Below are positions 1-59,518 of a stretch of DNA of 64,000 bases, one piece after another (the first letter of the stretch is position 1; the number at the start of each line of letters is the position of its first letter). The position numbers and the translations under genes were made by a program. Source of the DNA: Fimbriimonadales bacterium. GTDB lineage: Bacteria; Armatimonadota; Fimbriimonadia; Fimbriimonadales; JABRVX01. The DNA lies in assembly GCA_045862955.1 (NCBI GenBank), contig BTVI01000003.1, positions 40,762 to 104,761 of the forward strand, given 5' to 3'. The notes under the pieces are model-generated. The model did not search any database, was not told the DNA's origin, and was given only the letters and a program-made list of their open reading frames with translations.

Positions 1-30
1 GGCGGGCCCACTCGAGTCGCATGATGTAAG

Positions 31-96
31 CAAATCCACAAAAAAAAAAGTACACAAGTAACTATTGACAAAACCTGGTGGGTAGGGCAGTATATA
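31..96 (+). promoter_or_regulatory. AT-rich island upstream of the first gene: A10 tract (40-49), perfect -35-like TTGACA (65-70), TATATA (91-96)
   Basis: Read directly. The region is strikingly AT-rich for this genome. Spacing from TTGACA to TATATA is 20 nt, which is non-canonical; a weaker CAGTAT lies at 17 nt. Confidence 0.3.
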
Positions 97-127
97 AGTG
101 CTGTTGGGCTAGTGCGTGGAAACCGAG

Positions 128-1336
128 ATGCGAACGCATGTGATGAAGCCTTATACGATAGCTGCCGCCGCATACGTCCTGGCGGGCGTAGGGGGTGTCG
201 GAGCGGTGTTACTGCACGTTGGCGAACCTCGGCAGTACTCGGAACCCGTCTTCTACTATGCTCCCGACTGCCCCGGCTGTGGTGACGTGCTGCCCTCTAT
301 AAAGCAGTTGGCAGGCTTGCGTTACGTGGATATCTCGCAGGCAGACGGATACGAGCGGGCTGTCGCGGCGCAAGGCAGCCCCGAGGTCGAGGTTCCATAT
401 CTGCAACTCGTCGTAGCCGGCTCACTCCGTACTGCGGTGGGCTCGGACGAGGTCTCGGCTCTAGCCCATGCGGTCACTGCTACCGACCGCGAACGAGAGA
501 CCTCGTTCAAGGTGGCTGTTGGGCTGCTTGGAATAGTCCTGCTTGCCGGCGCCGCGTCCTGGGCTTGGCTGGGCGAGCTGGCCCCTCCTGCGGGCGTTCT
601 TCTCTCGCTTCTGGCGGCGATGAGGCCGTGCACGGCATGCGCGTCGGGGGATCGCCTGCTGAGTGCGGCAGCCTCGGTTCTGGGCGTGGCCGTCTTCCTT
701 TGCATCATGGTGGCAGCCCGAGCGCAGGCGCCGCCGAGACACGTGGCGGCCTGGCTGTGCGTAGCCGGAGCCATAGTACAGGCGGGCATGCTGGTAGTAG
801 CTCCGAAATTCTGTGTTCCGTGCCTCGGGGTAGGCCTATGCTTCCTGCTCGGCGCCAAGATGCTGCCCAACCTGCCCGTGCCTACCGTGTCGCATCCCCA
901 GAGGTCTCGCGCATGGACAGTCTTCGCCGGGGCGGCACTAGGGTGCAGCGTTGCACTGCAGGCCGCCTCATCGTCGTACTGGCCCGTTCCCAGCGGAGGT
1001 CGCCCCATCGCTGAGTATCGGGGCAAAGAGGCATCGGAGCTTGTCGGCATGCTCCCCGAGGGAGCGCCCCGGCTCGTGGTGCTGGTGGTGGCGGGGTGCG
1101 AGGCATGCCAACGTGCGGTGGGGGCGCTCACGAGGGGCGGGGTGCCCTTCATTGCAGTGCAGAGATGCAGCGAAGCTGCCGGTCCACCCTGCTTCGCCGA
1201 TGCAGCGCTAGACACCGCATACCCCACCTTTCTGGTGCTGGACGAGAGCGGGCGGATCGAGAGGATTTCGGCGGGATGGCCTTCGGGTGCAACCGCCGAT
1301 GAAGCCGTCGAGTATTACAGGAGGTGTACGCAGTGA
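128..1336 (+). CDS. Polytopic membrane thiol-disulfide oxidoreductase with two thioredoxin-fold domains (TRX-CPGC / ~6 TM with CTAC and CVPC / TRX-CEAC)
   Basis: ORF 116..1336, with ATG at 128; GTG 116 and ATG 143 are alternative starts. It has an N-terminal TM helix, a thioredoxin-like segment with CPGC, further hydrophobic helices carrying CTAC and FCVPC, and a C-terminal thioredoxin-like segment with GCEAC. Stop TGA 1334-1336 overlaps the GTG start of the next gene. Confidence 0.7.
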   Translation: MRTHVMKPYTIAAAAYVLAGVGGVGAVLLHVGEPRQYSEPVFYYAPDCPGCGDVLPSIKQLAGLRYVDISQADGYERAVAAQGSPEVEVPYLQLVVAGSLRTAVGSDEVSALAHAVTATDRERETSFKVAVGLLGIVLLAGAASWAWLGELAPPAGVLLSLLAAMRPCTACASGDRLLSAAASVLGVAVFLCIMVAARAQAPPRHVAAWLCVAGAIVQAGMLVVAPKFCVPCLGVGLCFLLGAKMLPNLPVPTVSHPQRSRAWTVFAGAALGCSVALQAASSSYWPVPSGGRPIAEYRGKEASELVGMLPEGAPRLVVLVVAGCEACQRAVGALTRGGVPFIAVQRCSEAAGPPCFADAALDTAYPTFLVLDESGRIERISAGWPSGATADEAVEYYRRCTQ

Positions 1337-1412
1337 AGCTCGACACGTTGCTGAGGAAATCCTGGCGCGGCGCCGTTGCCGTGCTTGGCGTGACGATGAT
1401 TCTGGGGCTGAT
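1078..1412 (+). repeat. High-identity duplicated block, copy 1 (3' end of the oxidoreductase gene plus the leader of the Cys-rich gene); partner at 3118-3452
   Basis: Aligned by eye at offset +2040. I count about nine mismatches over ~335 nt. Similarity ends abruptly at 1412/3452. Confidence 0.9.
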
Positions 1413-1731
1413 CCAGATGCCCGGCAGCGGGCAGGTGCCGCCACCCATAGACCCCGATGACTGCAAGCCGAGCGTTCAATCAGACACGGGGTGCAAGGAC
1501 TTCCAGTATATGTGCAGCCTACTAGGCTGGAACTGGCAGATCATCGTAGAATGCCACAGGTGGTGTTGCTATCGCGATGGATACCTATACGCGACGATCT
1601 GGGAAGTACCCTCGGCGTGTGACTGTACGCAGAACCGGACCGAGTGCTGTTCGATCTTCTTCCCGAGAAACTGCATGGAGACTGCACAGCACATGCAGAG
1701 CACGAAGCCATGCCCGCAGGTTGAGCGCTGA
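1333..1731 (+). CDS. Secreted or signal-anchored cysteine-rich protein, variant 1 (12 Cys in ~100 aa mature region)
   Basis: In-frame GTG 1333 lies 8 nt after AGGAGG (1319-1324), with a GTGA overlap on the upstream stop. The leader is basic then hydrophobic (KLDTLLRKSWRGAVAVLGVTMILGLI). The Cys framework is C-9-C-6-C-12-C-3-CC-16-C-1-C-6-CC-7-C-12-C. A paralogue lies at 3373..3762. Confidence 0.75.
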   Translation: MKLDTLLRKSWRGAVAVLGVTMILGLIQMPGSGQVPPPIDPDDCKPSVQSDTGCKDFQYMCSLLGWNWQIIVECHRWCCYRDGYLYATIWEVPSACDCTQNRTECCSIFFPRNCMETAQHMQSTKPCPQVER

Positions 1732-1911
1732 GGTTCTATGAGGAGTGACCAAGGCCGGGTACCCGGACGTGCTCGTCGCTCTCCGTTCGGGCGGTACTGC
1801 TGGGCGATCGTGCAGGGGAAAATGCGCGTGGCCCGCGGTGTCGGACGCCACTCTCCCCCGCGCGGGGCCGAGAGGTCGTTGTCGGTTATCACGTAGGAGG
1901 GGAAATCGGAC

Positions 1912-2322
1912 ATGAGCGGACTGGCGGATGAGATTCGATCGTGGCGTCCAATATACCAGTGCGTGGCGCTAGGGGCGGCCGCAGGATTCACGTTCGGCGT
2001 CTTCGCCATGGTAGGCTACTACGTCCTCGGGGAATTCAGAGGTGAGCCGACGCAGACTGTCGCTATCAGCACCCTACTCTGTGCACTTGTCATAGCGCCT
2101 TGCGAGTCTCGGTGGGGCAGAGCCGGCTTGATCTGGGCGAACGCAGCCCTAGCCGTAGTCTGGATCGCGTTCTACTTGGTGGCTGCAGCCTACACCGGCC
2201 GCGTGTTCGTCGTCGGAGGTCTACGCGGCACTATCGTGGTGCTAACCGTGCTGCCCCTGCTAGCGGCGGGCAGTAGTGTGCTGTACGTACGGTTTCGGCA
2301 TAGTCTGATGGTTGGTCGCTAA
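1912..2322 (+). CDS. Small 4-TM membrane protein (family type 1)
   Basis: ATG 1912 follows a gtaggagggg RBS. The 136-aa product has four hydrophobic helices. Paralogues lie at 3911..4327 (diverged) and 4353..4744 (degraded). Confidence 0.7.
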   Translation: MSGLADEIRSWRPIYQCVALGAAAGFTFGVFAMVGYYVLGEFRGEPTQTVAISTLLCALVIAPCESRWGRAGLIWANAALAVVWIAFYLVAAAYTGRVFVVGGLRGTIVVLTVLPLLAAGSSVLYVRFRHSLMVGR

Positions 2323-2332
2323 GAGGTGTTGT

Positions 2333-3061
2333 ATGCTCAGGCGTGGTGTGGGACTAACGCTCGTGGAGCTACTCGTGGTCACCGCAGTGATCGCCGCGCT
2401 CGCTGCGATTCTGTATCCGGTAGTCACAGTCGCACGGAAACGTGGGCAGAGCGCTCAGATCGTGAGTAACATGCGACAGCTCGCACAAGCGGTTAATGTA
2501 TATATGGATGACTACTGCCTGCGTTTGCCACCCTTAGATCCCAGGCCTCTACTGAAGAACCCGGCGGTCAGAGCCATCGCCTACTACCCACACAAGATGG
2601 CGACGCGGTCGGAGATGGACAGCGCACCGAGAGAAGAAGTTCCATTCCTCGGAGACTACGTGTACTGCCGGGAGGTGATCGGGCCGTCCGTTGGCTACGT
2701 GGTGTTTGATCACTGGCCAGACTTCTGGCGCGACCCCGACGCTGTGTGGAACCACTACTGGACGGGCGTTCCGGCTTCCCCTGTCATCCTGGTATCCCTG
2801 CACGACGCGGGCTTTCACATGCTACCCCGCCAGAAGCCGCTGTGGGCGGTCTTCGACACCAAGTATGATGATCCGCCGCCGCCACCGTGGCTTCGTTTTC
2901 CCCCTAGGGTGCTGCGCTGTCGGCTGGACACTTCGGTGCGCACGTACCGTATCTTGAGGCACATGCAGACGAACATGGTCTTCTCCTATCTGCCGCTCTG
3001 TAGGAACAGGTTTGTCTGCTGTAGGACGTGTGAGGAGGCTGGTCAATACTGTTCGGAATAG
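2333..3061 (+). CDS. Prepilin-type N-terminal cleavage/methylation domain protein with Cys-rich C-terminal tail (pseudopilin, variant 1)
   Basis: ATG 2333 follows GAGGTG. The N-terminus G/LTLVELLVVTAVIAALAAILYPV is a class III signal with Glu at +5. The C-terminal tail is CRNRFVCCRTCEEAGQYC. There is no H-X9-DG motif. Confidence 0.8.
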   Translation: MLRRGVGLTLVELLVVTAVIAALAAILYPVVTVARKRGQSAQIVSNMRQLAQAVNVYMDDYCLRLPPLDPRPLLKNPAVRAIAYYPHKMATRSEMDSAPREEVPFLGDYVYCREVIGPSVGYVVFDHWPDFWRDPDAVWNHYWTGVPASPVILVSLHDAGFHMLPRQKPLWAVFDTKYDDPPPPPWLRFPPRVLRCRLDTSVRTYRILRHMQTNMVFSYLPLCRNRFVCCRTCEEAGQYCSE

Positions 3062-3115
3062 CCTCCGACGACGTCGGGGCGAAGCCCCCCTGTCTGCTCG
3101 GTAGCGCCAGGCGAC

Positions 3116-3376
3116 TTGGTGCTGGTGATGGCGGGGTGCGAGGCGTGCGAGCGTGCGGTGGGGGCGCTCACGAGGGGCGGGGTGCCCTTCATTGCAGTGC
3201 GGAGATGCAGCGAAGCTGCCGGTCCACCCTGCTTCGCCGATGCAGCGCTAGACACGGCATACCCCACCTTTCTGGTGCTGGACGAGAGCGGGCGGATGGA
3301 GAGGATTTCGGCGGGATGGCCTTCGGGTGCAACCGCCGATGAAGCCGTCGAGTATTACAGGAGGTGTACGCAGTGA
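3116..3376 (+). pseudogene. 3' fragment of an oxidoreductase paralogue (C-terminal thioredoxin-fold domain only); may still be translated as an ~82-86 aa CxxC mini-protein
   Basis: It matches codons ~322-406 of the 128..1336 gene almost exactly and keeps GCEAC. No upstream TM or TRX1 portion is present. In-frame TTG 3116 and ATG 3128 exist. Its stop overlaps the next gene's GTG, as in copy 1. Confidence 0.6.
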
Positions 3377-3452
3377 AGCTCGACACGTTGCTGAGGAAAT
3401 CCTGGCGCGGCGCCGTTGCCGTACTTGGCGTGACGATGATTCTGGGGCTGAT
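3118..3452 (+). repeat. High-identity duplicated block, copy 2; partner at 1078-1412
   Basis: Same alignment as above. Confidence 0.9.
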
Positions 3453-3762
3453 ACCGGTGCACACGTTGGGACAGGGAACGCCCCCGCCGCCGATGCAGTG
3501 CACGACCACTTCCCATGGGATGTTCGGCTGCAAGGACTACCCTGGTTCATGCTCAACCTCAGAGACTAACTGGGACATTATCGTCGCTTGCGATCGCAAG
3601 TGCTGTTATGTCGAAGGACAACTCTACTCCGAGACGTGGACTCTTTCGTCTAACTGCTGGTGCGTTCAGCTGCAGGGCTGCTGCGATTATAATCGCAATT
3701 GCACACAGACGGCGGACATGATCAAGGACAGGTGGCCCTGCCCGCGATACCAGCAGCAGTAG
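3373..3762 (+). CDS. Secreted or signal-anchored cysteine-rich protein, variant 2 (12 Cys)
   Basis: Same RBS, GTG start and leader as variant 1, with one nucleotide difference in the leader. The mature region is highly diverged but keeps the framework C-9-C-6-C-12-C-3-CC-16-C-1-C-5-CC-5-C-12-C. Confidence 0.75.
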   Translation: MKLDTLLRKSWRGAVAVLGVTMILGLIPVHTLGQGTPPPPMQCTTTSHGMFGCKDYPGSCSTSETNWDIIVACDRKCCYVEGQLYSETWTLSSNCWCVQLQGCCDYNRNCTQTADMIKDRWPCPRYQQQ

Positions 3763-3910
3763 GAGCTTAGCAGCATGAGGCTTGAGAACGGCGGGCACAC
3801 CGCGAGTGGCTACGCGCAGGGCCTCAGGTCACACCCTCCCAGGGAGGAATTGGCGCGTGAGGAACCAGCCCCGCTTGTCGTGTTGGCGAACTTCTGAAAG
3901 AGGAATCTAA

Positions 3911-4327
3911 GTGGACGTTAGGTATCGCGGCATTTGGGACGAGGTGAGGGCATGGCCTGCATGGGTCCGTGTTCCGGCTGTCGGTGCCGCTGCCGGCGCT
4001 TCCTTTGGGGTGTTTGCATCGGTGGGGTACTATTTGGTTGGGCAGTACCGTGGTAGGCCATGGGAGATCGCCATCATCGCTGCTTTGTGGGGCGCTGCAG
4101 TTGTCGCTCCTCTGCACAACAGGTACGGCCGCGCAGCAATAGCATATGCCACCTTGCTAGCAGCAACCTTGTGGCTGCCGTTCTCTGTGTACACGGGCCA
4201 GCTTACCGCGGAGCACATGGCCACCGAGCTCTTCTATACTATTCTGTACGTCACGACATTGCCGCTCCTATCCGTCGGCACGTCGACGGTCTATACACTG
4301 ATGGAGCGGGCAATGCGTGGGCACTAG
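3911..4327 (+). CDS. Small 4-TM membrane protein (family type 2, diverged paralogue)
   Basis: GTG 3911 follows AGAGGA. The 138-aa product has the same helix layout as the 1912 gene, including the shared ...GVFA.VGYY.(V/L)G(E/Q)(F/Y)RG... segment, but low overall identity. Confidence 0.7.
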   Translation: MDVRYRGIWDEVRAWPAWVRVPAVGAAAGASFGVFASVGYYLVGQYRGRPWEIAIIAALWGAAVVAPLHNRYGRAAIAYATLLAATLWLPFSVYTGQLTAEHMATELFYTILYVTTLPLLSVGTSTVYTLMERAMRGH

Positions 4328-4352
4328 CGGTACATCCGACGAGGAGCGCTAA

Positions 4353-4744
4353 TTGGGGACGGGCGGACTAGCGGATGAGATTCGATCGTGGCGTCCAATA
4401 TACCAGTGCATGGCGCTAGGAACGGCCGCAGGATTCGCCTTCGGCGTCTTCGCCACGGCAGGCTACTACGTACTCGGGCAATTCAGAGGTGAGCCGATGC
4501 AGACTGTCGCTATCAGCACCCTACTCTGTGCACTTGTCGTAGGGCCTTGCGAGTTTCGGTGGGGCACAGCCGGCTTGATCTGGGCGAACGCAGCCCTAGC
4601 CCTAGTCTGGATCGGGTTCTACTTGGTGGCTGCAGCGGAGGTCCACTCGGCACTATCGTGCTGCTAACCGCGCTGCCCCTGCTAGCGGCGGGCAGTAGCG
4701 TGCTGTACGTTCTGTTTCGGCATCGTCCGATGGTCGGTCGCTAG
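4353..4744 (+). pseudogene. Degraded copy of the type 1 4-TM gene (start codon and RBS lost, 25-nt deletion causing a frameshift)
   Basis: ORFs 4353..4667 and 4547..4744 together reproduce the 1912..2322 protein. The segment ctacaccggccgcgtgttcgtcgtc, present near 2195 in copy 1, is absent near 4637. The ATG context acatgagcgg is replaced by acgggcgg. Confidence 0.7.
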
Positions 4745-4754
4745 GAGGTGTCGT

Positions 4755-5489
4755 ATGCTTAGGCGTGTCGTCGCACTGACGCTGATAGAGCTACTCGTGG
4801 TCATTGCAGTGATCGCCGCGCTCGCTGCGATTCTGTACCCTGTCATCTCGGGAGCGCGGAAACGTGGGCAGAACGCTCAGATCGTGAGTAACATGCGGCA
4901 GCTCGCACAAGCGGTCAATGTCTACATGGAGGACAACCACCTGCGTCTTCCGCCCTTCGACCCTAGGCCGCTGCTGAAGAACCCGGCGGTCAGAGCCATC
5001 GCCTACTACCCGCACAAGATGGCAACGCGGTCGGAGATGGACAGTGCACCCAGAGAAGAGGTTCCATTCCTCGGAGACTATGTGTACTGCCGGCAGGTGG
5101 TCGGAGTCTCTGCAAACTACTTCGTGGTTGAGCGCTGGCCCGACGTCATTTGGCGCGACCCCGACGCCGTGTGGCGCAACTACTGGACAGACATTTCGGC
5201 GTCACCTGTCATCCTGGTATCCCTGCACGACGCGGGCTTTCAGATGCTGCCCCGCCAGCAGCCGCTCGGGGACTCCGTCCCGGACACTGAACACGACAAG
5301 CCGGTCAGACCACCGCCGGTGAACTTCCCGCCGAGGGTCCTTAGGTGTAGGCTGGACACTTCGGTGCGGACGTATCGAATCGTGGAGCACATGCAAACGA
5401 ACATGGGATTCTCGTATATCCCGTTGTGTATGAACAAGTATGCCTGCTGCAAGCACTGCCAAGAGGCGGGCCAGGACTGCTCCGAATAG
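4755..5489 (+). CDS. Prepilin-type N-terminal cleavage/methylation domain protein with Cys-rich C-terminal tail (pseudopilin, variant 2)
   Basis: ATG 4755 follows AGGAGGTG. The N-terminus is [23 protein letters not shown]. The C-terminal tail is CMNKYACCKHCQEAGQDC. Confidence 0.8.
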   Translation: MLRRVVALTLIELLVVIAVIAALAAILYPVISGARKRGQNAQIVSNMRQLAQAVNVYMEDNHLRLPPFDPRPLLKNPAVRAIAYYPHKMATRSEMDSAPREEVPFLGDYVYCRQVVGVSANYFVVERWPDVIWRDPDAVWRNYWTDISASPVILVSLHDAGFQMLPRQQPLGDSVPDTEHDKPVRPPPVNFPPRVLRCRLDTSVRTYRIVEHMQTNMGFSYIPLCMNKYACCKHCQEAGQDCSE

Positions 5490-5501
5490 CGGTAGACGAC
5501 A

Positions 5502-7703
5502 TCAGGGCGACGGTGCGGTTGCCTGCTCGGTAGAACCCGGCGACTTGTAGGAAGGCAGCGGGATGCGCCATGCGCCGCGCCCGTGCGTGGCAGCCGTCAG
5601 GTAGCCGGTGCGCCGGTTGAGCGATAGGCTCTCGACCGGAGTGTGCGGGATGCCCTTGCCGAAGCGCTTCCACTGCCCTCCCCCGGTGTTCGACACGAAC
5701 ACGCCGCAATCCAGCGCCACGTAGATGTCGTCCGGTCGGGTAGGGTCAATGGCGATGTGACGCACGGGAGCATCCGGAAGGTTGTCATCTACCGAGCGCC
5801 AGGAACCACCCGCGTTTTCCGTGAGGAACACGTGCTTGTTACCGAACCCGGCCAGCCCGACGATCACCCTACGCGGCGAGCGAGGGTCTACGGCGACCCA
5901 AGTGATCCACTGCGCGGGCAGTCCCGCCGAGATGTCGTACCACTGTTCACCCGTGTTAGGAGTGACCCACATCCGCCCCCACCGGTTGCCGCAGTAGATC
6001 ACCTCGGACTTGCCATAGGCGATACCAATCGCGGATATGGGGCCGATGTCACCGCTGATAACCTTCCACGTGTCGCCCCCATCGGTGGTGCGCGACGCGC
6101 GGAGGGCCCCCGCAACCAGGATGTCCGGGTCGTTCGGGTCCATGGCATAGGGTGCATAGAACAGCGCGCCCGTGCGGTCGATCCTATCGGCGATGGACTG
6201 CCAGCTCTCGCCCCCGTCGTCCGACTGATACATGGCAAGCCCTACGTAGGTGGAATAGGCCCGCTTGGGGTTCTTATAGTTGAAGAGACTGATGCCACCG
6301 TCTCCCTGCACCGATATCCGCCACACGGGGTTGCCGCGGTACTTGAGTGTGCCGTTATCCTGTGTGCCACCAATGGCATCGTATGGGTCCCACGGGTGCG
6401 TGTCTATGGTTTCGAATTGGATGTTGGCCAGGCCGGTGTTGATGGCACGCCAGGTGTCGCCTCGGTCATAGGTGACGAACATGCCGCCATCGGTGGCGCC
6501 ATAGAGCACCTTCGGGTCGTGTGGGTCGAAGGCGTACCCGTGCCAGTCGGGATGAACGCCCCACTGGAAGGACCGTGCTGCGTCGATCCAAGTCTCGCCG
6601 CCATCCAAGCTGCGGAAGCAGCTGGAGCCCGCCGCATACACCACCTTCGGATCGTCCGGCCCGCATGCGAGGAAGTTATCGTACCAGCTGCCGTAGTTCG
6701 GTGCGTTGGGGAGGTGCACCCACGTTCGGCCGCCATCGTCTGTTCGGTACATGACGATGCCCGCATCGGTGACATAGGAGACGTACACGGTGTTGGGCAC
6801 GTCGCGGCACTGGGCGAGTTGAGTGCGACCGAAGGTGCCTGGCGCGCGCAGTCCTCCCTCGAGCATCTCCCACGTGTTCCCCGAGTCATTCGTCTTGAAT
6901 ACACCTTCTTTGGGTGGGGTCCCACCACAGGCGTAGAAGGTATCCGGCTGCTTGGGGCTGTTGACGACGTCGCGGAAGTAGCCCTCGAGCAGTCGCGTCC
7001 AGGTGTTGCCTCCATCGAGAGAGCGAAAGAGACCGCGCGATGTGGCGGCCAGCAGCAACCCCGGGATCTTGGGGCTCGCGGTCAGCTTGGCCCAATACGC
7101 GCCCGCGAACTGCTCTTCGGCCAGCAGCTCCCATGTGCGGCCCGCATCCATTGAGCGCAAGAGCCCCGCACCGAAGTAGCTGTCTCCGGAGCCGTGCGCC
7201 TCACCAGTGCCCGCGTAGATGATGTCCGGGTTGAATGGGTCGAGAATGAGCGAGCCGAAAGAGAGAGACGCCTCGAAGTCCGAGAGCGGCTCCCAACTCG
7301 CACCCCGGTTGGTGCTCTTGAACACTCCGCCGTGCGATGCGCCGATGTAGATGCGGTTGGTGTTGCGCGGGTCCACCGCGATGCTACTGACACGCCCCGC
7401 ACACTCGTACCCGCCCCATCCATCGCGGAGTTTGCTGGGACCGATGAACTCCCACGCGGGCACGTTGCCCTTGGCATCCGTCCAGTAAGGCAACTGGAGA
7501 GCGGCCAGCCAGGCCGAACGCCGCGCCTGCCACGCGGGCGCCTGGGGCGAGACGCGGAGCTGGTCGAAGTACTCCTCACGCTGCTCGAGTAGCTTGGCAT
7601 ACTGAGAGACGAGCTGTACGGGCGGGCGGTCTTGCGCGTCCTTCGGTGGGCCTATTTGTACGAGAAAGGCGGCGAGCACGACCAGCGATGCAACGAACCC
7701 CAT
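5502..7703 (-). CDS. Secreted BNR/Asp-box repeat protein, tandem beta-propeller type (GH74 / sortilin-VPS10 / Ycf48-like)
   Basis: The 733-aa product has at least 10 S-x-D-x-G-x-(T/S)-W motifs, including SMDAGRTW, SLDGGNTW, TDDGGRTW, SDDGGESW and TTDGGDTW. It has an N-terminal hydrophobic signal. Confidence 0.8.
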   Translation of the reverse strand: MGFVASLVVLAAFLVQIGPPKDAQDRPPVQLVSQYAKLLEQREEYFDQLRVSPQAPAWQARRSAWLAALQLPYWTDAKGNVPAWEFIGPSKLRDGWGGYECAGRVSSIAVDPRNTNRIYIGASHGGVFKSTNRGASWEPLSDFEASLSFGSLILDPFNPDIIYAGTGEAHGSGDSYFGAGLLRSMDAGRTWELLAEEQFAGAYWAKLTASPKIPGLLLAATSRGLFRSLDGGNTWTRLLEGYFRDVVNSPKQPDTFYACGGTPPKEGVFKTNDSGNTWEMLEGGLRAPGTFGRTQLAQCRDVPNTVYVSYVTDAGIVMYRTDDGGRTWVHLPNAPNYGSWYDNFLACGPDDPKVVYAAGSSCFRSLDGGETWIDAARSFQWGVHPDWHGYAFDPHDPKVLYGATDGGMFVTYDRGDTWRAINTGLANIQFETIDTHPWDPYDAIGGTQDNGTLKYRGNPVWRISVQGDGGISLFNYKNPKRAYSTYVGLAMYQSDDGGESWQSIADRIDRTGALFYAPYAMDPNDPDILVAGALRASRTTDGGDTWKVISGDIGPISAIGIAYGKSEVIYCGNRWGRMWVTPNTGEQWYDISAGLPAQWITWVAVDPRSPRRVIVGLAGFGNKHVFLTENAGGSWRSVDDNLPDAPVRHIAIDPTRPDDIYVALDCGVFVSNTGGGQWKRFGKGIPHTPVESLSLNRRTGYLTAATHGRGAWRIPLPSYKSPGSTEQATAPSP

Positions 7704-16064: not shown

Positions 16065-16784
16065 CTATCGCTTCTTCCGCCACCAGACGTAGCAGTTGTC
16101 GGCGTGGAGTTGATCGCGCGTCATCACCTTCGCATGGCCGTCCACGAAGGCTACCATTGCGGACTTCTTGCCGCCGTGTCGGTACTTCACAATGCCGTAG
16201 TCGGCCGTGAAGATGCGGGTGCCGAGCGTCGTGTCCATGCACTTGTATGCTTCCGGCTCTGCGATCCAGTCACCGTCTCCGTTCTCCGTCACTATGATCG
16301 TCTCGCTCGGCACTTCCACACCGTTCACACGGGCGGTCTTGTGATCCTGGTAGTCGGCGACGTTGGGGTTGACGTTGGTGAACACATCTATGTACGCCCA
16401 GTTGTTGATGCCGTACTGCCCCAGAAACTTCACCTGCGGATTGGCGTAGTAGTCGCGGCAATCCCACCCTTTGCCCTCGAAGCTAGGACAGCTGTAGAGC
16501 TCGTCCGCCTTCTGATACGGCTTGGTGATCTGCTTCCACGAGGCGTTGTCGGCGCACCAAGGTCGGTCCCACAGCCAGGTGATAGGCAGCACGTCGTCGT
16601 GGTCGCCGTAGTACATTGCGATGGCCATGCCCACCTGGCGCATCTGCTGTCCGCACACGACTTGCTTACCGTGCTCGCGAGCCCGCGAGAATACGGGCAA
16701 AAGGATGGCGGCGAGCACCGCGATGATAGCGATGACCACCAGAAGCTCGATCAGCGTGAAGGCGCTGAGCCTCGATCGATTCAT
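16065..16784 (-). CDS. Prepilin-type N-terminal cleavage/methylation domain protein (H-X9-DG-like family)
   Basis: The N-terminus is [24 protein letters not shown]. The C-terminus is ...RHGGKKSAMVAFVDGHAKVM. Confidence 0.85.
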   Translation of the reverse strand: MNRSRLSAFTLIELLVVIAIIAVLAAILLPVFSRAREHGKQVVCGQQMRQVGMAIAMYYGDHDDVLPITWLWDRPWCADNASWKQITKPYQKADELYSCPSFEGKGWDCRDYYANPQVKFLGQYGINNWAYIDVFTNVNPNVADYQDHKTARVNGVEVPSETIIVTENGDGDWIAEPEAYKCMDTTLGTRIFTADYGIVKYRHGGKKSAMVAFVDGHAKVMTRDQLHADNCYVWWRKKR

Positions 16785-24713: not shown

Positions 24714-26675
24714 ATGTCCGTTGACCAGACTGCGATTAAGGCGCTGCTCGAAGAGAATCGCACCTTTCCTCCCTCCCCCGAGTTCGTGGCCCAGGCCAAC
24801 GTTTCGGATCCTTCGGTCTATGAGCGAGCCGAAGCCGATCCGGAGGGCTTCTGGGCCGAGTTCGCCAGGGAGCTCCACTGGTACAAGCCTTGGGATACGG
24901 TGTTGGAGTGGAACCCGCCGCATGCGAAGTGGTTCATCGGCGGCAAGTTGAACGCTTCGTACAACTGTCTCGAGCGCATCATCGCCCAGGGCAAGGGGGA
25001 CAAGATTGCTCTGCTGTTCGAGGGAGAGCCTGGCGATAGCCGGACTCTAACCTACAACGAGATGCTCGAGCAGACTAACAAGCTTGCCAACACGCTGAAG
25101 TCCATGGGGGTTCAGAAGGGCGATCGGGTGTGCATCTATATGCCGATGATCCCGGAGCTCGTGATCTCCCTACTGGCCTGCGCTCGGATTGGCGCTCCGC
25201 ACTCCGTGGTCTTTGGCGGGTTCAGCGCTCAGAGTCTCGTGGACCGTATCACGGACGCTGATGCGCACTACGTGATCACTGCCGATGGAGGCTACCGCCG
25301 AGGAAAGGTGGTTCACCTAAAAGCTGCGGTGGACGAGGCACTGAAGAACTGCCCGAACGTCAAGGCTACGCTAGTGTACGAGCGCATCGGCAAGCCCGAC
25401 GTTTGCCCCGTGAACATGGTAGAGGGCCGAGACCACTGGTGGCAGACGCTCATGGCCCAGGCTTCCGACGTGTGCGAGCCCGAGCCGATGGATGCGGAAG
25501 ACGTGCTTTACATCCTCTACACGAGTGGCTCGACCGGAAAGCCGAAAGGAATCGTGCACACCACGGGCGGCTATCTCGTCGGGGCCTATGCCACCGCCAA
25601 GTGGACCTTCGACCTGAAGGACAGCGACATCTACTGGTGTACGGCGGACATCGGGTGGGTGACTGGACACACCTATATCGTGTATGGAGCGATGGCTAAC
25701 GGCGTGACGCAGGTGCTGTACGAGGGAGCTCCGGACTGGCCAGAGCAGGATCGATTCTGGGAGATCGTCGAGAAGTATAAGGTCACGATCATGTACACCG
25801 CTCCCACCGCGATCCGCGCATTCATGAAGTGGGGCGACCACCTTCCGGCCAAGCACGACCTGTCGTCGCTTCGTCTTCTCGGCACGGTCGGCGAGCCGAT
25901 CAATCCCGAAGCGTGGATGTGGTACTACGAGCACATCGGCGGCTCGCGAGTACCCATCGTGGACACATGGTGGCAGACGGAGACGGGGCATCTGCTCATC
26001 ACCCCGCTGCCAGGCATCACGGCCACGAAGCCCGGCTCCGCATGCCGCGCGTTCCCGGGAATCGGTGTGGACGTGATCGACGAGGCCGGCAACAGCGTGC
26101 CCAACGGCAGCGCCGGGTACCTAATCCTCACGCGCCCGTGGCCCGGCATGCTCCGCACCATCCACAACGACCCGGAGCGCTACGTGCGGCAGTACTGGTC
26201 CCAGTATCCGGGCCGCTACTTCACCGGTGACGGGGCGAAGAAGGACAAGGACGGCTACCTGTGGCTGCTCGGCCGCGTGGACGACGTGATGAACGTCGCC
26301 GGCCACCGTCTCAGCACCATGGAGATCGAGTCGGCTCTGGTGGACCACCCAGCCGTTGCGGAAGCTGCAGTCATCGGGAAGGACGACCCATTGAAGGGCC
26401 AGGCCGTAGCAGCGTTCGTGATCCTGAAGCAAGGCTACGAGCGCTCGGAAGAGCTGATCAGCGAACTCAAAAAGCACGTGGGAACGAAGATCGGTCCCAT
26501 TGCGCGGCCGGACGACATCATCGTGACCGCGGAGCTTCCGAAGACGCGGTCGGGCAAGATCATGCGGCGTTTGCTTCGTGACGTGGCCGAGGGGCGTGCG
26601 TTGGGCGATACCACCACGCTTGCAGACCCCGCGGTGGTCGCGGCCCTGAAGCAGAAGTACTCGGACGAGGGGTAG
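24714..26675 (+). CDS. acs: Acetyl-CoA synthetase (AMP-forming)
   Basis: The 653-aa product has [11 protein letters not shown] and a C-terminal [11 protein letters not shown] carrying the acylatable Lys. Confidence 0.95.
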
Positions 26676-26847
26676 AGTTCCCCGCTTCGTGACGTAGGTT
26701 AGGTCGGGGCGGTCCTCCGGGCCGCCCCCATCGCATCGCAGTAGGCTGTCGCTCGTAACTGCCGGATGGCAAGCGGTTGCTAAGTGCCTTTCCGAGCCTT
26801 CGCGGGTCCCCCGGCAGTGGCTGTCTTCCCGAGCTAGTCGCGGCTCC

Positions 26848-27437
26848 CATGCCTCGATGTTTGGGCTGCGGGTAGCGGCAGCCTTCCGCTCAAGACCATC
26901 CCCAGCAGCCGAACGTCGAGGCATCCAACTCGTCCATACCTCGGTGTTTCGGTTGCGGGTCGCGGCAACCTTCCGCTCAAGACCATCCCCAGCAGCCGAA
27001 CGTCGAGGCACAGACGGTGCGCGCCAACAGAAGCGCCGGCATGCGACCCCCACCCCAGCTTCGCAGACCCTCCCCCTTCCGCTTCGCTCCAAGGGGAGGG
27101 GTCGGGGCTCGCTACGGACCGTACCAGAGCACGCGCTGGCAAGCATCGCTGAACGCCAAGCGCTACCACCGGGGCTAGCCGATGCATTCGGTCCATGCCT
27201 CGATGTTTCGGTTGCGGGTCGCGGCAGCCTTCCGCTCAAGACCATCCCCAGCAGCCGAACGTCGAGGCACAGACGGTGCGCGCCAGCCGAAGGGCCGGCA
27301 TGCGACCCCCACCCCAGCTTCGCAGACCCTCCCCCTTCCGCTTCGCTCCAAGGGGAGGGGTCGGGGCTTCCCTGCCTCGATGTTTCGGCTGCGGGTAGCG
27401 GCCCCATGCCTCTGCTGCAGGAGCAGCGGAGGCATGG
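26848..27437. repeat. Composite array of a second hairpin-repeat family (~75-nt inverted-repeat units; a 172-bp unit is duplicated at 26935-27107 and 27194-27366)
   Basis: Unit: catgcctcgatgtttcggytgcgggt...ccagcagccgaacgtcgaggca, with self-complementary ends. It is followed by the hairpin ccctcccccttcc...ggaaggggaggg. A partial fourth unit lies at 27367-27437. Confidence 0.85.
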
Positions 27438-27839
27438 AGCAGTCGGCCACACGACCAACTGCAGCCTCCACGGCGAGAATGGCGAAAGCGCGCGAACAGC
27501 ACCCGACGGCCACTCTTTTCCTAGGCCTTTTCGGGACTTTATCGCGCGAGCCTATTGACACCTTGCAGAAAACCGATCATAGTGTAAGCGGTTCCGGGAA
27601 TGACCGGCCCAATCTCACCAGGAGGAGCAGATCGAATGACCAACCGCATCCGTCAGTATCTGCGGTCCCTCGCGCTGGCTAACAGCGAGGGGCTCCTGGG
27701 CGTCAATGCGTCTGCCTGGAGGAGGGTGTTGTAGGGCTTACAGCCACCAGGACGCAGCGACGCCACGGGAGCCGGAAACCCGTGGCGTTTTCTATTGTGT
27801 GTTGCGCGGCAGACGGCCTTGGGCCGTGAGGAGAAAGAA

Positions 27840-42347: not shown

Positions 42348-43022
42348 CTATCGGTTGCGACGCCCTCGGAACATGCGGAGCCCGATCAGGCCTAGACCAA
42401 CGGTTACGAGCGTTGCAGGCTCAGGAACGAGACCTGGGACGTACACACCGACGTTCTGACCCGAGTATCCGCCACCGGATGCAGTTGCGACCCAAAGGAT
42501 CCCCGCATCGGGCTCGTACAGGCTGTGGATTTGGAACATCAGCGCGGTGTCGGCTACGTCGGGTGACGCACTGCCTACGCGTATTGCGCTCGAGGTGGTT
42601 CCAGCCCACTCGGCATCTCCAGCAGCTTCATCTCCGATGAAAAACCACGGGATGAAGTTGACTCCCCCGCCCTTGCCACCGCCGTTACCGAGGTTTACGA
42701 ATGGCGAGATATCGGTCAAGCCGAAATAGGTGATTGCGCCAGGAACACCGGTGATGCTGCTGCCCGACACGTTCCGAATTCTATAAGAGTAGAAGTAGCC
42801 AGGATCGCCCACATGAGTGAACGCCCAGTAGTCGACATAGACATCCCCGAGGGAGACCCCCGGAACAGGATCGAGCAACACGGAACCCTGGTACAGGATA
42901 TTTACGTTGGGGTCCAAAGCATCGGGGTCGACATACGATACAGCGCCCGCCTGGACAACGAGACCAGACAGGGCGACCGTAATCAACGTCCCCCAAAACA
43001 ACCTTCTCACGGACACGGCCAT
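42348..43022 (-). CDS. PEP-CTERM sorting-domain secreted protein
   Basis: It has an N-terminal signal peptide. The C-terminus VPEPATLVTVGLGLIGLRMFRGRRNR gives PEP, a TM helix and a basic tail. Confidence 0.85.
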   Translation of the reverse strand: MAVSVRRLFWGTLITVALSGLVVQAGAVSYVDPDALDPNVNILYQGSVLLDPVPGVSLGDVYVDYWAFTHVGDPGYFYSYRIRNVSGSSITGVPGAITYFGLTDISPFVNLGNGGGKGGGVNFIPWFFIGDEAAGDAEWAGTTSSAIRVGSASPDVADTALMFQIHSLYEPDAGILWVATASGGGYSGQNVGVYVPGLVPEPATLVTVGLGLIGLRMFRGRRNR

Positions 43023-44490: not shown

Positions 44491-45378
44491 CTACTGAGTT
44501 ATATCCCACTTGTACGCGTCAATGTCCGTGATCGGACCCGCGTAGTTCGCGACCACATTCGGCACGCCCGCCGCGATCTGCTGGATGGTCATGGACTTGG
44601 CATGTCCGTCCACGAACACCGTGGTGCACTTATCGGTGTGCCACGGCCAGCAGCCACCGAAAACATCCCAGGCATTCGGAAGCTCTGGGTGCCAACCCGT
44701 GTATGGGTAGTAATTGTTGCCCGGTAGCGGCCAGGTGTCCACGCGCGTTCCGTCCGGCTTTACCCACGTACGGGCAGGCGGAATGGCGATCCAGTTGCCG
44801 CCACCGAACGGCTTGCCGCTGGCATCTCTGTTCCACACCGTGTCGATGTGGAGGAACGTGTTGGCGGTCGAAGCGATGCGCCCTTCCTTCGTCGGAACGG
44901 AGCCCCAACCTGACGAAGTGGAATACACCGGGCTCAGATAATATGAGTTCATCCCGACGTTAGTGCGCAGCGACCACTCGTAGTTGCGTTCCCAGCGGTT
45001 GGCCGGTGGCGGGCATTCGCCTTCGTTGCCGTGCTGGGTTAGCTCCTTGTCGTTGGCAGTCGGGTCAGACGGGCAGCGAAAGACTGTCCACTCCTTCACG
45101 TAGCCCTGAAGGGACGTTACCCAGACTTGGTCTCTGTAGTCGTACGAACACCCCGCCCATGCTGCGGTGTGATTGGTGAGGACGAACTTGCCGTTATTGT
45201 CACCGCGATACTGCGCTTGGGCAATCGCGACCTGCTTGTAGTTCGAGATGCACTGCGAGACCTTGGCGGCTTTGCGAGCCTGTGAGAATACAGGGAATAG
45301 GATTGCAGCAAGAATCGCGATAATTGCGATGACAACCAGCAGCTCGATAAGCGTGAAACCGGTCCTTTTCATGATCAT
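44491..45378 (-). CDS. Prepilin-type N-terminal cleavage/methylation domain protein, H-X9-DG family
   Basis: The N-terminus is [24 protein letters not shown]. The C-terminus [18 protein letters not shown] fits H-X9-DG exactly. Confidence 0.9.
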
Positions 45379-45660: not shown

Positions 45661-46563
45661 CTAATCCTGCAAGTCCCAAATGTACGCGGACTGGTCGCTG
45701 ATCAACCCGTCCCAGTTCTGAAGGCGAGAACACCCCGCAGTGAGTTCATCTGGCATCAAGCGCCGAACGTGGCCGTCGGCGAATACGACCGTGAACCCGC
45801 CGTTGTGCCAGTTCCACGCACCACCATAATAGTTGCTCGACTTCGGATCCGACTCCCATCCCTTCGGGGCCATTCGCCAATAGTATTCGTTCTGCCAGAC
45901 GACCCGTGGGAAAGTGTCCCGATTCACTGCGTTGGCAGCCAGATATCGGCAAGGAGGAACCACGACCCACTGACCCCCGCCGAATGGGCGACCTAGATGA
46001 TCCCGGCCCCACACGCTGTCCACGAAAACGAGCGTCCTCGCAGGGCTGGCGATGCTAGAAAAGCGGTTGGGAAACGCCATCCAGCCAAGCGTCACATCTC
46101 GCACGAGGGGTGAGAGGTACATGAAGTTGAACCCCAAGTTCGTTCGCAAGGACCGAACGTAAAACTCGCCCCAGTCGTCGTCAGGCGCCGCATCCACGTC
46201 GTCCCAACGCCCGACGCGAGCCGGTGTTGCACGTCCAGTGTCACCGGGGCATTCGAACACGTCTACCGACCTGGTGTACGGGTAGAGAACCTGGACCCAC
46301 GTTCGGTCGTCGGGGTCGACTCTCTCGGGGATGTAAGCGTGGTAATTGGTGGGCGGGAACCGATCGCTGTACTCGTCCATGTACATCCGCAGAGCCTTCA
46401 GCACAGCGCTGAAGTTCTCGGCGCACGAGGCACGGATCGCAGCACCGCGCGCAGCGCTCATGACAGGAAACAGCAGCGCCGCGAGGATGGCTATCACCGC
46501 CACGACGACGAGAAGCTCCACCAGCGAGAAGGCCTGCCGATGCCTCAGGTTATCGCCTCCCAC
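45661..46563 (-). CDS. Prepilin-type N-terminal cleavage/methylation domain protein, H-X9-DG family
   Basis: The N-terminus is FSLVELLVVVAVIAILAALLFPV. The C-terminus WHNGGFTVVFADGHVRRL fits H-X9-DG. Confidence 0.9.
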   Translation of the reverse strand: MGGDNLRHRQAFSLVELLVVVAVIAILAALLFPVMSAARGAAIRASCAENFSAVLKALRMYMDEYSDRFPPTNYHAYIPERVDPDDRTWVQVLYPYTRSVDVFECPGDTGRATPARVGRWDDVDAAPDDDWGEFYVRSLRTNLGFNFMYLSPLVRDVTLGWMAFPNRFSSIASPARTLVFVDSVWGRDHLGRPFGGGQWVVVPPCRYLAANAVNRDTFPRVVWQNEYYWRMAPKGWESDPKSSNYYGGAWNWHNGGFTVVFADGHVRRLMPDELTAGCSRLQNWDGLISDQSAYIWDLQD

Positions 46564-46744: not shown

Positions 46745-47962
46745 TCATAGCACGAAGTGCCAGACGACGCCCGGAACGGTTCTCCTCGGGTGCGCAACGG
46801 CTCCGACCGAAAACCCCAATGGCCCCCTCCAGCCTGCGAAGAGAACTGGACCCCGTGTGGTCAAGAAGCCGCTCGCATAGAAGTCCCCGCGCGAGTTCGA
46901 GCGCCACAAGTCCAAGCCCGCCGCAACCTGCAGCCCAGACTCTCGATCGAGCATCAAGCCGATCCGAACCGTCGGAGCACCGATGGAACTCGGCGGCGAA
47001 TACGTTTCGCCAGAAAACCTCGCTGCGAAGAAGTCCGCAACCACTCGGAGTAGCCTGCGCTCCACGAAGACCGCTCCGTAGTGCCCCGTCTCCAGCCAGA
47101 GCATCGGGGGACTACCTAGTGCCTTGTGCAACTTCTCCGTGTCCGTCGCCGGAACTACCGTGTCGAACATCGCGCCAACCAGCAGAACGCGCTCGCCCAT
47201 CTCCGCGTTCACGTACGACAACGGTTCGACGTCCTTAAGGCGGGAACGCAAGCGCTCCTCCGTCCACCCGTTGCGACGCAACACCTCTCGGACGGAAATC
47301 GAAAGGGAGCTGTTCCACAGGATATGCGCAACATCTCCGCCCCCGAGCAGAAACACTCCGAACCGGAGCCTAGGCTCGGCTGCCATGCCTAGCGAAGCGA
47401 TGATGGCTCCGAGACTGACCCCTAGGACGCCGATGCGCTCTGCATCAATGAAGCTCTGAGCTTCCGCCCAGTCCACGGCACGCCGTAGGTCGGAAACTGA
47501 TTGGCGCACCATCTCCTCGAATGCGCCAACGTCGGGTCGCAGTGCCAGCGCCCCGCTGCGATACCCCGGCGGGCTGCGCTCAATGTGATAGGGAAGCGTG
47601 ACCAGCAGCGCCGCCATCCCGCGATCGTTCAGTCGCTTTGCGATGCGCTCCTCGAGGAAGTGGTCCGCGACGCCCAGCCCGTGCAACAGGATCACTGTGG
47701 GCATCGGTTCCTCGGCCCCCGCTGGGCGGATCAGCCGCGCTCGCACGATGTCGTTCTCCGGCCACTCGGTCTGATGTGCCGAGGGGAAGCTGACCTCCAA
47801 GAACCCTGCCTTCTGCACGGTCTGTGCATTGAACTCCTTGGGAGGCGCCGGAAATGTGTCGGCGGCGGACTGGCTCCATGCCGCTGCAACGCACAGCGCG
47901 GCCGCGGCAGGAAGCAGCGCACGGAGAGGTAACAGGATGGAAGATGCAGGAGGTGTCCCCAT
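46745..47962 (-). CDS. Secreted alpha/beta hydrolase
   Basis: It has the nucleophile elbow GVSLG, VILLHGLG, and Asp (MFDTVVP) and His (ETGHYG) candidates. A signal peptide follows the ATG at 47962; the ORF opens at GTG 47998. Confidence 0.7.
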   Translation of the reverse strand: MGTPPASSILLPLRALLPAAAALCVAAAWSQSAADTFPAPPKEFNAQTVQKAGFLEVSFPSAHQTEWPENDIVRARLIRPAGAEEPMPTVILLHGLGVADHFLEERIAKRLNDRGMAALLVTLPYHIERSPPGYRSGALALRPDVGAFEEMVRQSVSDLRRAVDWAEAQSFIDAERIGVLGVSLGAIIASLGMAAEPRLRFGVFLLGGGDVAHILWNSSLSISVREVLRRNGWTEERLRSRLKDVEPLSYVNAEMGERVLLVGAMFDTVVPATDTEKLHKALGSPPMLWLETGHYGAVFVERRLLRVVADFFAARFSGETYSPPSSIGAPTVRIGLMLDRESGLQVAAGLDLWRSNSRGDFYASGFLTTRGPVLFAGWRGPLGFSVGAVAHPRRTVPGVVWHFVL

Positions 47963-54886: not shown

Positions 54887-55615
54887 CTACAGCACGTGAT
54901 CGCTGCCGATGTCGGTGAGCGTCCGGAACTTCGCGCCCTTCGCTCTCAGCGCGGCGATGGCATCGCGTAGAACATGCACCTGGTTCACGTAATCGTGCGC
55001 ACCGAGCACGATCACCTTGCCCGGCTGCGCCTGATTCTCGATGACGTCGGCAATCGAGTCCGGCTTGTCTATGAACGCGGGCTGGTTCTTCCCGATGCTG
55101 ACCGGAATGCACAGCAGCTTGGACGGTCCAGGCTTCTTCACGTCGTCGGGATCGGGGTGGTATGGCTGATGCGGCGCCCCGGTCCAGTCCACGAAGAGTT
55201 TGTAGTCGCTGTCGGGCACCGGGCTCGAGTCCACCAGCACCCCGACATCCTCCAAGTACTTGATGTCCGAGGCCTGCAAGGCGAAGCACCCGGCTCGGAA
55301 CGAGGTGGGCTTGATCAGGTGAGATTTCAGCACGTCCTTGGCCATGCGGATGATCGCGCCACGCTCGCGCTCATCCTCTACATAGCCGTTTTGATTCTCG
55401 AAGTGCACGTGCATACCAATCTCGTGCCACGAGGGGATTCGGTGTAGGTACTCCCTGTAGTAGAGGTCTGCGTTTGCAGTCGGGACCTTCTCGGAAACGT
55501 AGATGAGCCACGTGATGGGAACCATGAACTCCTCGGCGATCTTCACGATCTCCGGTGTGAAGCAGCGGTTCTCGTTGGCTGCTTCACAGTCCACGGTTAT
55601 TGCAACCGTCGGCAT
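54887..55615 (-). CDS. Putative polysaccharide-deacetylase-fold protein
   Basis: The 242-aa product starts VAITVDCEA... and has His-rich segments (HVHFEN) suggestive of a deacetylase-type beta/alpha barrel. The assignment is weak. Confidence 0.4.
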   Translation of the reverse strand: MPTVAITVDCEAANENRCFTPEIVKIAEEFMVPITWLIYVSEKVPTANADLYYREYLHRIPSWHEIGMHVHFENQNGYVEDERERGAIIRMAKDVLKSHLIKPTSFRAGCFALQASDIKYLEDVGVLVDSSPVPDSDYKLFVDWTGAPHQPYHPDPDDVKKPGPSKLLCIPVSIGKNQPAFIDKPDSIADVIENQAQPGKVIVLGAHDYVNQVHVLRDAIAALRAKGAKFRTLTDIGSDHVL

Positions 55616-59508: not shown

Positions 59509-59518
59509 GACGGTACTG

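Follow-up and report, generated by a model that had tools for sequence, protein, structure and literature searches.

Only DsbB, VKOR and, since a 2026 preprint, MauE are known or proposed as membrane protein families that generate disulfides in the periplasm. Some thiol-disulfide oxidoreductases are dedicated to a bacteriocin locus, as BdbA and BdbB are with sublancin in Bacillus subtilis. Other oxidoreductases of bacteriocin loci are PedC, found with pediocin (PMC4919988), and that of the Blp cluster (PMC10059821). VKOR proteins have four conserved cysteines (Cys) and a conserved Ser/Thr (PMC4555120). MauE, with a CXC active site, was recently proposed to form with MauD a third disulfide-forming pathway, and about 20% of the surveyed species lack DsbB, VKOR and MauE (bioRxiv 10.64898/2026.03.05.709764). 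In this work we analyzed a stretch of 64,000 nucleotides from a Fimbriimonadales bacterium (contig BTVI01000003.1, positions 40,762 to 104,761; hereafter the window) and describe a membrane protein encoded near its start, together with the genes that accompany it. The redox motifs of this protein are arranged much as in fusions of VKOR with thioredoxin (VKOR-Trx), and membership in VKOR, DsbB, DsbD or MauE is not demonstrated. It belongs to an undescribed Armatimonadota family and may add one more type of disulfide-forming enzyme to the bacterial set of DsbB, VKOR and MauE. Our preferred reading, to which we would give roughly even chances, is that of a VKOR-like, quinone-linked thiol oxidase with a tethered glutaredoxin-like (Grx-like) carrier, dedicated to the cassette in which it is encoded.

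The gene (128..1336, + strand) is the longest open reading frame (ORF) at its position and yields 402 amino acids (aa) when translated from ATG128, with GTG116 as an alternative start (frame 116/128..1336). Its translation holds four CxxC motifs, CPGC at residue 48, CTAC at 168, CVPC at 229 and CEAC at 324, and its hydrophobic segments correspond to a first transmembrane (TM) helix, TM1, plus six more. AlphaFold2 run on the family alignment gave a model with a predicted local distance difference test score (pLDDT) of 84 and a predicted template modelling score of 0.71, whose membrane helices include a long one at 106-142 followed by 152-165, 176-198, 203-224, 230-248 and 258-280; a model of the membrane domain alone agrees with it (pLDDT 81). 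In the full model, C229xxC232 is right at the N-terminal end of helix 230-248, which is the classic placement of a redox-active CxxC at the start of a TM helix, and C168xxC171 lies in a flexible outer loop between helices, modelled at lower confidence. A first-pass annotation had described one chain with a TM helix, a Trx domain carrying CPGC, about six TM helices carrying CTAC and CVPC at helix ends and a second Trx domain carrying CEAC, and translation, hydropathy and model bear this out, with the two membrane motifs at the outer ends of helices and a second domain of Trx or Grx type. The C-terminal domain has the characters of a Grx-like Trx fold: the beta-alpha-beta-alpha-beta-beta-alpha order in the model, a CxxC at the start of helix 1 and, before beta 3, the near-invariant cis-Pro P366; it also contains the pair C347/C355 and G383-W384. 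When the full model was compared with the PDB by Foldseek, only Trx and Grx matches were obtained, with probability 1.0 although E-values were 0.017 or higher. The family profile detected PDB glutaredoxins at E=1.3e-4, and Pfam Glutaredoxin was matched by 19 of the 43 family members (E<=0.1; best 2.9e-5), the query itself being sub-threshold (13.4 bits vs a cut-off of 22.9). In the N-terminal Trx-fold domain, P90 is the probable cis-Pro.

An exhaustive phmmer search over 1.84 billion cluster representatives gave 51 matches. About 45 of them are proteins of 300-440 aa that can be aligned along most of the chain, with identities of 17-33%, and one of the 51, P0033, is a repeat protein matched spuriously. 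A word-seeded search of 5.8 billion proteins found no match with the oxidoreductase as query, and at least four matches were obtained when the family alignment was used. The query and subgroup A9 were also scanned against GTDB, each species being represented by one genome, and no relatives turned up; the family is rare. Its taxonomy rests on 6 named proteins from metagenome-assembled genomes (MAGs), all annotated as hypothetical protein: five come from Armatimonadota or Fimbriimonadaceae/Fimbriimonadia MAGs, and the sixth from a soil-metagenome record with the locus-tag prefix BH11ARM2, which we read as an Armatimonadota bin. Fragmentary or deleted versions (P0001, P0002, P0004) occur in other assemblies. 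P0004, a metagenomic protein of 107 aa, has a portion of the N-terminal Trx-like domain (about aa 54-95) fused directly to the Grx part (aa 343-402), with the membrane domain deleted.

Conservation was counted in an alignment of 43 sequences (the query and 42 relatives). C168, C171, P226, C229, C232, C324 and C327 are invariant, so that three CxxC motifs (168, 229 and 324) are kept in 43/43 members, far above chance. Nearly invariant are Q218, which lies in TM5, A330, C347, C355, P366, G383 and W384, and K227 in the C229 loop is conserved. The four sequences that lack C347 and C355 have lost both jointly, the pattern expected of a structural disulfide. The N-terminal CPGC is missing in all 42 relatives and is common only to a close sister lineage; the signature of the family is therefore three CxxC motifs, the fourth being lineage-specific. 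In this sense, the four-CxxC design claimed by the first-pass annotation is present in the window protein, but its N-terminal CPGC is not a family feature (0/42 relatives).

The genetic surroundings are also conserved. We compared ten loci, namely the window and the neighbourhoods of nine distant relatives (L001, L004, L005, L007, L008, L009, L044, L045 and L046), and all ten carry a module of oxidoreductase, secreted Cys-rich protein, pilin-like protein and 4-TM protein. The Cys-rich proteins of these loci have 106-171 aa and 6-12 Cys, with the common framework C...GC...C...W...CCY...C...CC...C...CP (alignment A6), and the pilin-like proteins have about 200-250 aa and a prepilin methylation motif, mostly together with a CDxxDxW(R)xxC loop. 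Gene order differs between loci; the Cys-rich gene mostly stands directly after the oxidoreductase gene and often overlaps its stop codon. That synteny persists while the proteins are only 20-30% identical argues strongly for a functional link. The coupling to a 12-Cys, substrate-like gene that had been noticed in the window is thus retained as a pairing across ten divergent loci, within a cassette that also has the pilin-like and 4-TM genes. The protein probably makes disulfides in the adjacently encoded Cys-rich secreted protein. The profile of the Cys-rich proteins matched nothing in the PDB, and PADLOC defence models matched none of the cassette proteins.

Topology was assessed by counting Lys and Arg (K+R) per loop over the 43 sequences, following the positive-inside rule. 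About 2.0 K/R and a net charge between +1.5 and +1.8 were found in each of three regions: the N-terminal segment and the loops TM4-TM5 and TM6-TM7. Charge is close to neutral in the loop that follows TM1, in the C168 loop and in the stretch beyond TM7, and the C229 loop has only K227. The predicted topology places the N-terminus inside and the C-terminus outside, and leaves the two Trx-like domains, like the two membrane CxxC loops, on the non-cytoplasmic side. LpxK and KdsB are encoded in the window, so the organism is diderm and outside means the periplasm; the periplasmic location of both Trx domains anticipated by the first-pass annotation is thus supported, as a prediction, by the positive-inside rule. 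The alignment contains no conserved cytoplasmic cysteines, which argues against electron import of the DsbD type.

We then compared the family with the described membrane oxidoreductases. Against Pfam and NCBIfam, the query has no match to VKOR, DsbB, DsbD/CcdA, MauE or DoxX, and its only matches are sub-threshold ones to Glutaredoxin and Thioredoxin on two soluble segments. None of the 43 full-length members matched a membrane oxidoreductase family of Pfam at E<=0.1. Searches of PDB sequences with the query and with the membrane profile returned nothing, and the family profile found no VKOR in the PDB. A word-seeded search with the Synechococcus VKOR fragment gave no matches, a scan of viral contigs for VKOR found none, and Foldseek of the membrane-only model against BFVD found nothing significant. 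Membership in three described families was rejected. DsbB (PF02600) has no Pfam match, aligns with the membrane domain by HHalign at P=0.11 over 26 columns (4-sequence DsbB alignment; score 14.9, probability 0.5%), and both Cys-bearing loops of the window protein are short. DsbD/CcdA (PF02683, PF13386) has no Pfam match, and the conserved Cys of the family are two CxxC pairs at the outer face. MauE/DoxX likewise has no Pfam match, and the motifs are CxxC whereas the MauE site is CXC.

The closest described proteins are the VKOR-Trx fusions. The VKOR profile used in HHalign contained human VKORC1 (sequence checked against 6wv3), a Takifugu VKOR-like protein, the Synechococcus fragment, one metagenomic bacterial VKOR-Trx, four eukaryotic VKORs and eight plasmid proteins of cyanobacteria, Kineococcus and Priestia annotated as vitamin K epoxide reductase family. 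The full family aligned with this 15-sequence profile over 186 collinear columns (aa 177-368; score 55.1, E=5e-7, probability 92%) and with a thinner, 8-sequence profile at a score of 62.0 (2.3e-8, probability 95%). The alignment pairs TM4/TM5 with VKOR TM2/TM3, PKFCxxC with the VKOR CxxC, TM7 with the VKOR linker helix and the Grx CxxC with the Trx CxxC. When the membrane domain was compared with the VKOR membrane domain alone, the score was 22.5 (P=0.0045, probability 8%), which exceeds those of 40/40 fully column-shuffled profiles (maximum 15.9) and of 40/40 locally shuffled ones (maximum 20.8), as well as that of VKOR against DsbB with the same profiles (18.7; 0.039; probability 1.3%). As in VKOR, where a CxxC opens the last core TM helix, C229xxC232 stands at the N-terminus of such a helix.

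Several results weigh against a VKOR-like oxidase. The Grx domain alone scored 29 against the VKOR Trx domain (4e-5; probability 69%), and with the membrane part reversed the full family still scored 37 against VKOR (2.1e-4; probability 46%); generic similarity between Trx folds thus accounts for much of the full-length score. Changing the four invariant Cys of the membrane domain to Ala brought its score against VKOR to the null level (12.0; 0.3; probability 0.2%), and so nothing beyond the cysteines ties this domain to VKOR. Pfam VKOR (PF07884) matched 0/41 isolated membrane domains at E<=10, and the same was true of DsbB, DsbD/CcdA, MauE and DoxX. Foldseek of the membrane-only model against the PDB was not significant: the weak matches include 3kp9, 4nv2 and 4nv6, all Synechococcus VKOR and the only thiol oxidoreductases among them, with E-values of 5-8. 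VKOR has a long capped loop with spaced Cys; here the loop with the CxxC has about 10 residues (aa 166-175) and the model shows no cap helix. In VKOR and DsbB the shuttle loops are long and mobile, which neither Cys-bearing loop is here. Finally, the orthologue of a sister genome has two frameshifts, which makes the gene dispensable in a close relative. The likeness in function to VKOR-Trx, DsbB or DsbD noted in the first-pass annotation stands for VKOR-Trx fusions, which are the closest by their collinear Cys motifs, and falls short of a clear full-length match. Its description of the architecture as unrecognised agrees with our searches, since neither the query nor its 41-43 relatives gave a profile hidden Markov model match to these families, the membrane domain had no PDB sequence match and its Foldseek matches were not significant.

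The same evidence bears on whether the membrane domain could descend from a common ancestor with VKOR and be a genuine, strongly diverged member of that superfamily, the protein being then a VKOR-Trx fusion with an N-terminal extension. This is a question of classification and not of mechanism. The collinear full-length alignment, the presence of Synechococcus VKOR structures among the weak structural matches and the motif context [K/R/D][F/L]CxxC, alike in both families, speak for such an origin; the absence of any Pfam VKOR match, the low membrane-only probability, the loss of signal on Cys masking, the replacement of the long capped loop by a short CxxC loop and the high Foldseek E-values speak against it, and on balance we consider it possible though unlikely.

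If the protein is a quinone-linked oxidase, one chain would unite the role of DsbB or VKOR (de novo disulfide formation) with that of DsbA (transfer to substrates). The periplasmic, Grx-like C324xxC327, tethered by TM7, would oxidize cysteines of exported substrates and be re-oxidized by the loop pair C168xxC171, which in turn would hand its electrons to C229xxC232. A membrane quinone is the putative acceptor that would re-oxidize C229xxC232, and Q218, P226 and K227 may line the acceptor site. Electrons would then flow from substrate thiols to C324/C327, C168/C171, C229/C232 and quinone, in that direction. The main substrates would be products of the cassette: the translationally coupled Cys-rich protein and probably also the Cys-bearing pilin-like protein. 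In the lineage of the window alone, the CPGC Trx-like domain may act as a second carrier or as an isomerase site. We propose this relay because of the analogy with VKOR-Trx, the outward topology, the lack of conserved inner Cys and the Cys-rich neighbours.

The cassette also allows for a different chemistry. A substrate with 10-12 Cys needs isomerization as much as oxidation, and the window lineage has two Trx-fold CxxC domains, as in protein disulfide isomerase; the membrane CxxC pairs and the Grx domain could thus shuffle or reduce wrong disulfides with electrons from quinol or another periplasmic reductant. However, the family has no conserved cytoplasm-facing Cys for an electron import like that of DsbD/CcdA and no Pfam match to either, and its motif order is that of the oxidase VKOR-Trx, so that a role as disulfide isomerase or reductase seems improbable to us. 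We find it still harder to accept a metal-handling or metal-sensing protein in which the two CxxC knuckles form a Cys4 metal or Fe-S site on the outer side of the membrane. A pair of CxxC motifs is often the mark of a Cys4 metal site and single members faintly match DUF2085 (E=0.05-0.27) and an Fe-S motif family (E=0.011), but these matches involve one member each and are below threshold, C229xxC232 sits at a helix N-terminus as in redox sites and without a beta-knuckle, and the fused Grx-like domain with its CxxC and cis-Pro, along with the Cys-rich neighbours, points to thiol-disulfide chemistry.

Features of the oxidoreductase gene and of the two cassettes, in positions of the window
Feature	Position	Strand	Basis or remark
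TM1, signal-anchor helix, aa 8-32	149..223	+	Hydropathy; AlphaFold2 helix 8-32; N-terminal segment K/R-rich family-wide; N-terminus predicted cytoplasmic
N-terminal Trx-fold domain, aa 37-104	236..439	+	AlphaFold2 beta-alpha-beta-alpha-beta-beta order; weak Pfam Thioredoxin match, E=0.12
CPGC, aa 48-51, in N-terminal Trx-fold domain	269-280	+	Opens first helix of the domain (AlphaFold2)
TM2 (about aa 124-144) and TM3 (aa 152-165), short cytoplasmic turn between	497..622	+	Hydropathy, AlphaFold2, K/R counts
C168-T-A-C171, short outer loop TM3/TM4, proposed shuttle pair	629..640	+	Invariant (43/43); lower-pLDDT loop; K/R-poor
TM4 (aa 176-198) and TM5 (aa 203-224), K/R-rich cytoplasmic loop between	653..799	+	Alignment, AlphaFold2, K/R counts
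P226-K-F-C229-V-P-C232, N-terminus of TM6, proposed quinone-facing pair	803..823	+	Invariance; helix begins at 230; HHalign on VKOR TM4 CxxC
TM6 (aa 230-248) and TM7 (aa 258-280)	815..967	+	AlphaFold2, K/R counts, HHalign
C-terminal Grx-like Trx-fold domain, aa about 310-402	1055..1336	+	Profile, Pfam, Foldseek, conservation
C324-E-A-C327 in C-terminal Grx-like domain	1097-1108	+	Invariant family-wide
Cys-rich protein 1, 135 aa, signal peptide, 12 Cys in mature part, proposed substrate	1324..1731	+	Start 13 nucleotides before oxidoreductase stop codon
4-TM membrane protein, 136 aa	1912..2322	+	4-TM counterparts of about 135-150 aa in all cassettes examined
Pilin-like protein, 249 aa, prepilin N-terminal methylation motif, Cys-rich C-terminus	2312..3061	+	TIGR02532; GspG-like N-terminus
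Orphan copy of oxidoreductase 3' end, aa 313-402	3104..3376	+	tblastn; 92% identical, no membrane part
Second, partly diverged cassette	3364..5489	+	ORFs, similarity to first cassette
Cys-rich protein 2	3364-3762	+	Diverges after repeat; 53% protein identity overall to first
4-TM protein 2	3911-4327	+	Distinct gene, 39% identity
Frameshifted copy of first 4-TM gene	4353-4744	+	82% identical (86% to 1912-2322); split by the frameshift into ORFs 4353-4667 and 4547-4744
Pilin-like protein 2	4755-5489	+	82%-identical copy

Upstream of the oxidoreductase gene there are a ten-A run at 40-49 and a TTGACA at 65-70. A sigma-70 promoter scan of 1-5600 found no site, and the nearest TATA-like hexamer to this TTGACA is at a non-canonical spacing. 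Both pilin-like proteins of the window exceed the TIGR02532 cut-off of 16.3 bits (17.4 for the first and 17.5 for the second) and resemble the GspG N-terminus (E=2.5e-5 and 3e-6 respectively), and the remainder of each has no family match. The Cys loop CD(P/A)xDxW(R)xxC is found in most cassette pilin-like proteins (L004, L005, L007, L008, L009, L045 and L046). Both window copies lack that loop and end in the Cys cluster PLCxNxxxCCxxCxEAGQxCSE instead.

The window contains a duplication that involves the oxidoreductase gene itself. A 344-bp repeat (1077-1420) recurs at 3117-3460 with 96.8% identity and spans the last 87 codons of the oxidoreductase gene and the first 32 codons of the Cys-rich gene, which encode the signal peptide. 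This repeat followed by sharp divergence, together with the orphan Grx-like fragment, resembles the orphan-module layout of polymorphic toxin/immunity loci. Only one cassette, which is of the second (B2) type, is present in the sister MAG (Fimbriimonadia HRF45, locus L002, contig Ga0307753_100032). The oxidoreductase orthologue of this MAG (L002 7977-9100) has 80.7% nucleotide identity to the window gene and carries the two frameshifts: an indel of +2 directly behind the CTAC codons and one of -1 at codon 313, which is the very codon where the orphan fragment of the window starts. Three samples and a Logan assembly contain the sister contig. Downstream modules may be swapped at the 3' end of the oxidoreductase gene, which has the look of a recombination site. 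A BNR/Sortilin-Vps10 repeat protein (5502-7703, - strand) lies directly downstream of the cassette, and one occupies the same position in the sister MAG. In other genomes, the neighbours of the cassette (L001 4124-7152; L005 1193-3229; L046 2032-3216) include SIR2_2 with a DUF87/HerA-like ATPase, a KAP NTPase and a phage-type integrase; such defence- or mobility-type neighbours suggest that the cassette is in a variable island.

A more far-reaching version of the oxidase reading combines these observations, and we regard it as speculative and rather unlikely. It holds that the family would have evolved independently of DsbB, VKOR and MauE and would join them as a fourth class of membrane enzymes that generate disulfides de novo, built from two short-loop CxxC pairs and a tethered Grx-like carrier. 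The enzyme would be the private catalyst of a mobile and polymorphic Armatimonadota cassette encoding a secreted Cys-rich effector or bacteriocin-like protein, an immunity-like 4-TM protein and a pilin-like protein, with new effector/immunity variants swapped in by recombination at the conserved 3' end of its gene. That the gene is instead a decaying, non-functional remnant in the window lineage we consider very improbable: the frameshifts of the sister orthologue seen in several samples, the fragment and deletion forms elsewhere and, within the window, the orphan 3' fragment and the frameshifted 4-TM gene would agree with decay, but the window copy is an intact frame of 402 codons with every invariant family residue and a confident AlphaFold2 model.

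Elsewhere in the window lie another three genes of the prepilin type (N_methyl), of which one matches DUF1559, as well as a gene for a PEP-CTERM protein (16065-16784, 44491-45378, 45661-46563 and 42348-43022, all on the - strand), a content typical of Armatimonadota-like genomes. Four long ORFs, 47829-49937 (+), 59483-61897 (+), 54887-55615 (-) and 26121-27458 (-), of 702, 804, 242 and 445 aa respectively, have no Pfam match at E<=0.001; some of them may be shadow ORFs in this sequence of 62% GC.

Compared with VKOR-Trx fusions (PF07884 plus Trx, as in Synechococcus VKOR 3KP9/4NV2), the window family shares the succession of a Cys pair, two TM helices, a helix started by CxxC, a linker TM helix and a periplasmic Trx-fold CxxC, and TM7 returns the chain outward as TM5 does in bacterial VKOR-Trx. 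The differences are an extra TM1, a Trx-like domain and TM2 upstream of the core; a first pair that is a CxxC in a short loop, with no conserved Ser/Thr identified; and a carrier that is a minimal Grx-like domain with the extra pair C347-C355. With DsbB and DsbA it has in common a compact helical membrane protein whose two redox Cys pairs face the periplasm and which works for a Trx-fold carrier, and the Q...LL..(K)PCxxC motif of DsbB TM1 resembles Q218...PKFCxxC. In contrast to DsbB, the family lacks the long second loop, its CxxC comes second and not first, its carrier is fused and it has seven TM helices instead of four. DsbD, CcdA and ScsB are also polytopic proteins with periplasmic redox domains, and DsbD too has a soluble domain on each side; however, DsbD uses a single Cys in the mid-membrane Pro-Cys of TM1 and TM4, reachable from both sides, and receives electrons from cytoplasmic thioredoxin.

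MauE and MauD resemble the window system in the logic of a dedicated catalyst and differ from it in that the window family has a fused carrier and CxxC motifs. Bacteriocin loci are similar in having an oxidoreductase in one operon with a small secreted disulfide product and a small, immunity-like membrane protein, but their enzymes are ordinary members of the DsbB or Trx families whereas that of the window belongs to a new one. Also, the product of the present cassette has about 80-100 aa, 10-12 Cys and a Sec signal peptide, the operon includes a pilin-like gene, and an antimicrobial role is only a candidate. The four-gene module of Armatimonadota is uncharacterised, and its candidate roles are those of a secreted Cys-rich effector, a pilus accessory or a bacteriocin.

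Because the genes for the enzyme with its carrier and for the probable substrates stand side by side, the system is self-contained and should be readily transferred to E. coli, where C168, C171, Q218, P226, K227, C229, C232, C324 and C327 offer ready targets for mutagenesis. A layout like that of VKOR without the sequence signature of VKOR, DsbB or MauE makes the family a testable candidate for another solution to periplasmic disulfide generation. A membrane thiol oxidoreductase that works with a Trx-fold carrier, sometimes reserved for a single operon, is known from VKOR-Trx, DsbB/DsbA, MauE/MauD and bacteriocin loci; what is new here is an undescribed and unannotated family with a design of its own: both CxxC loops are short, a further Trx-like domain is present at the N-terminus, and the gene belongs to a cassette of four.

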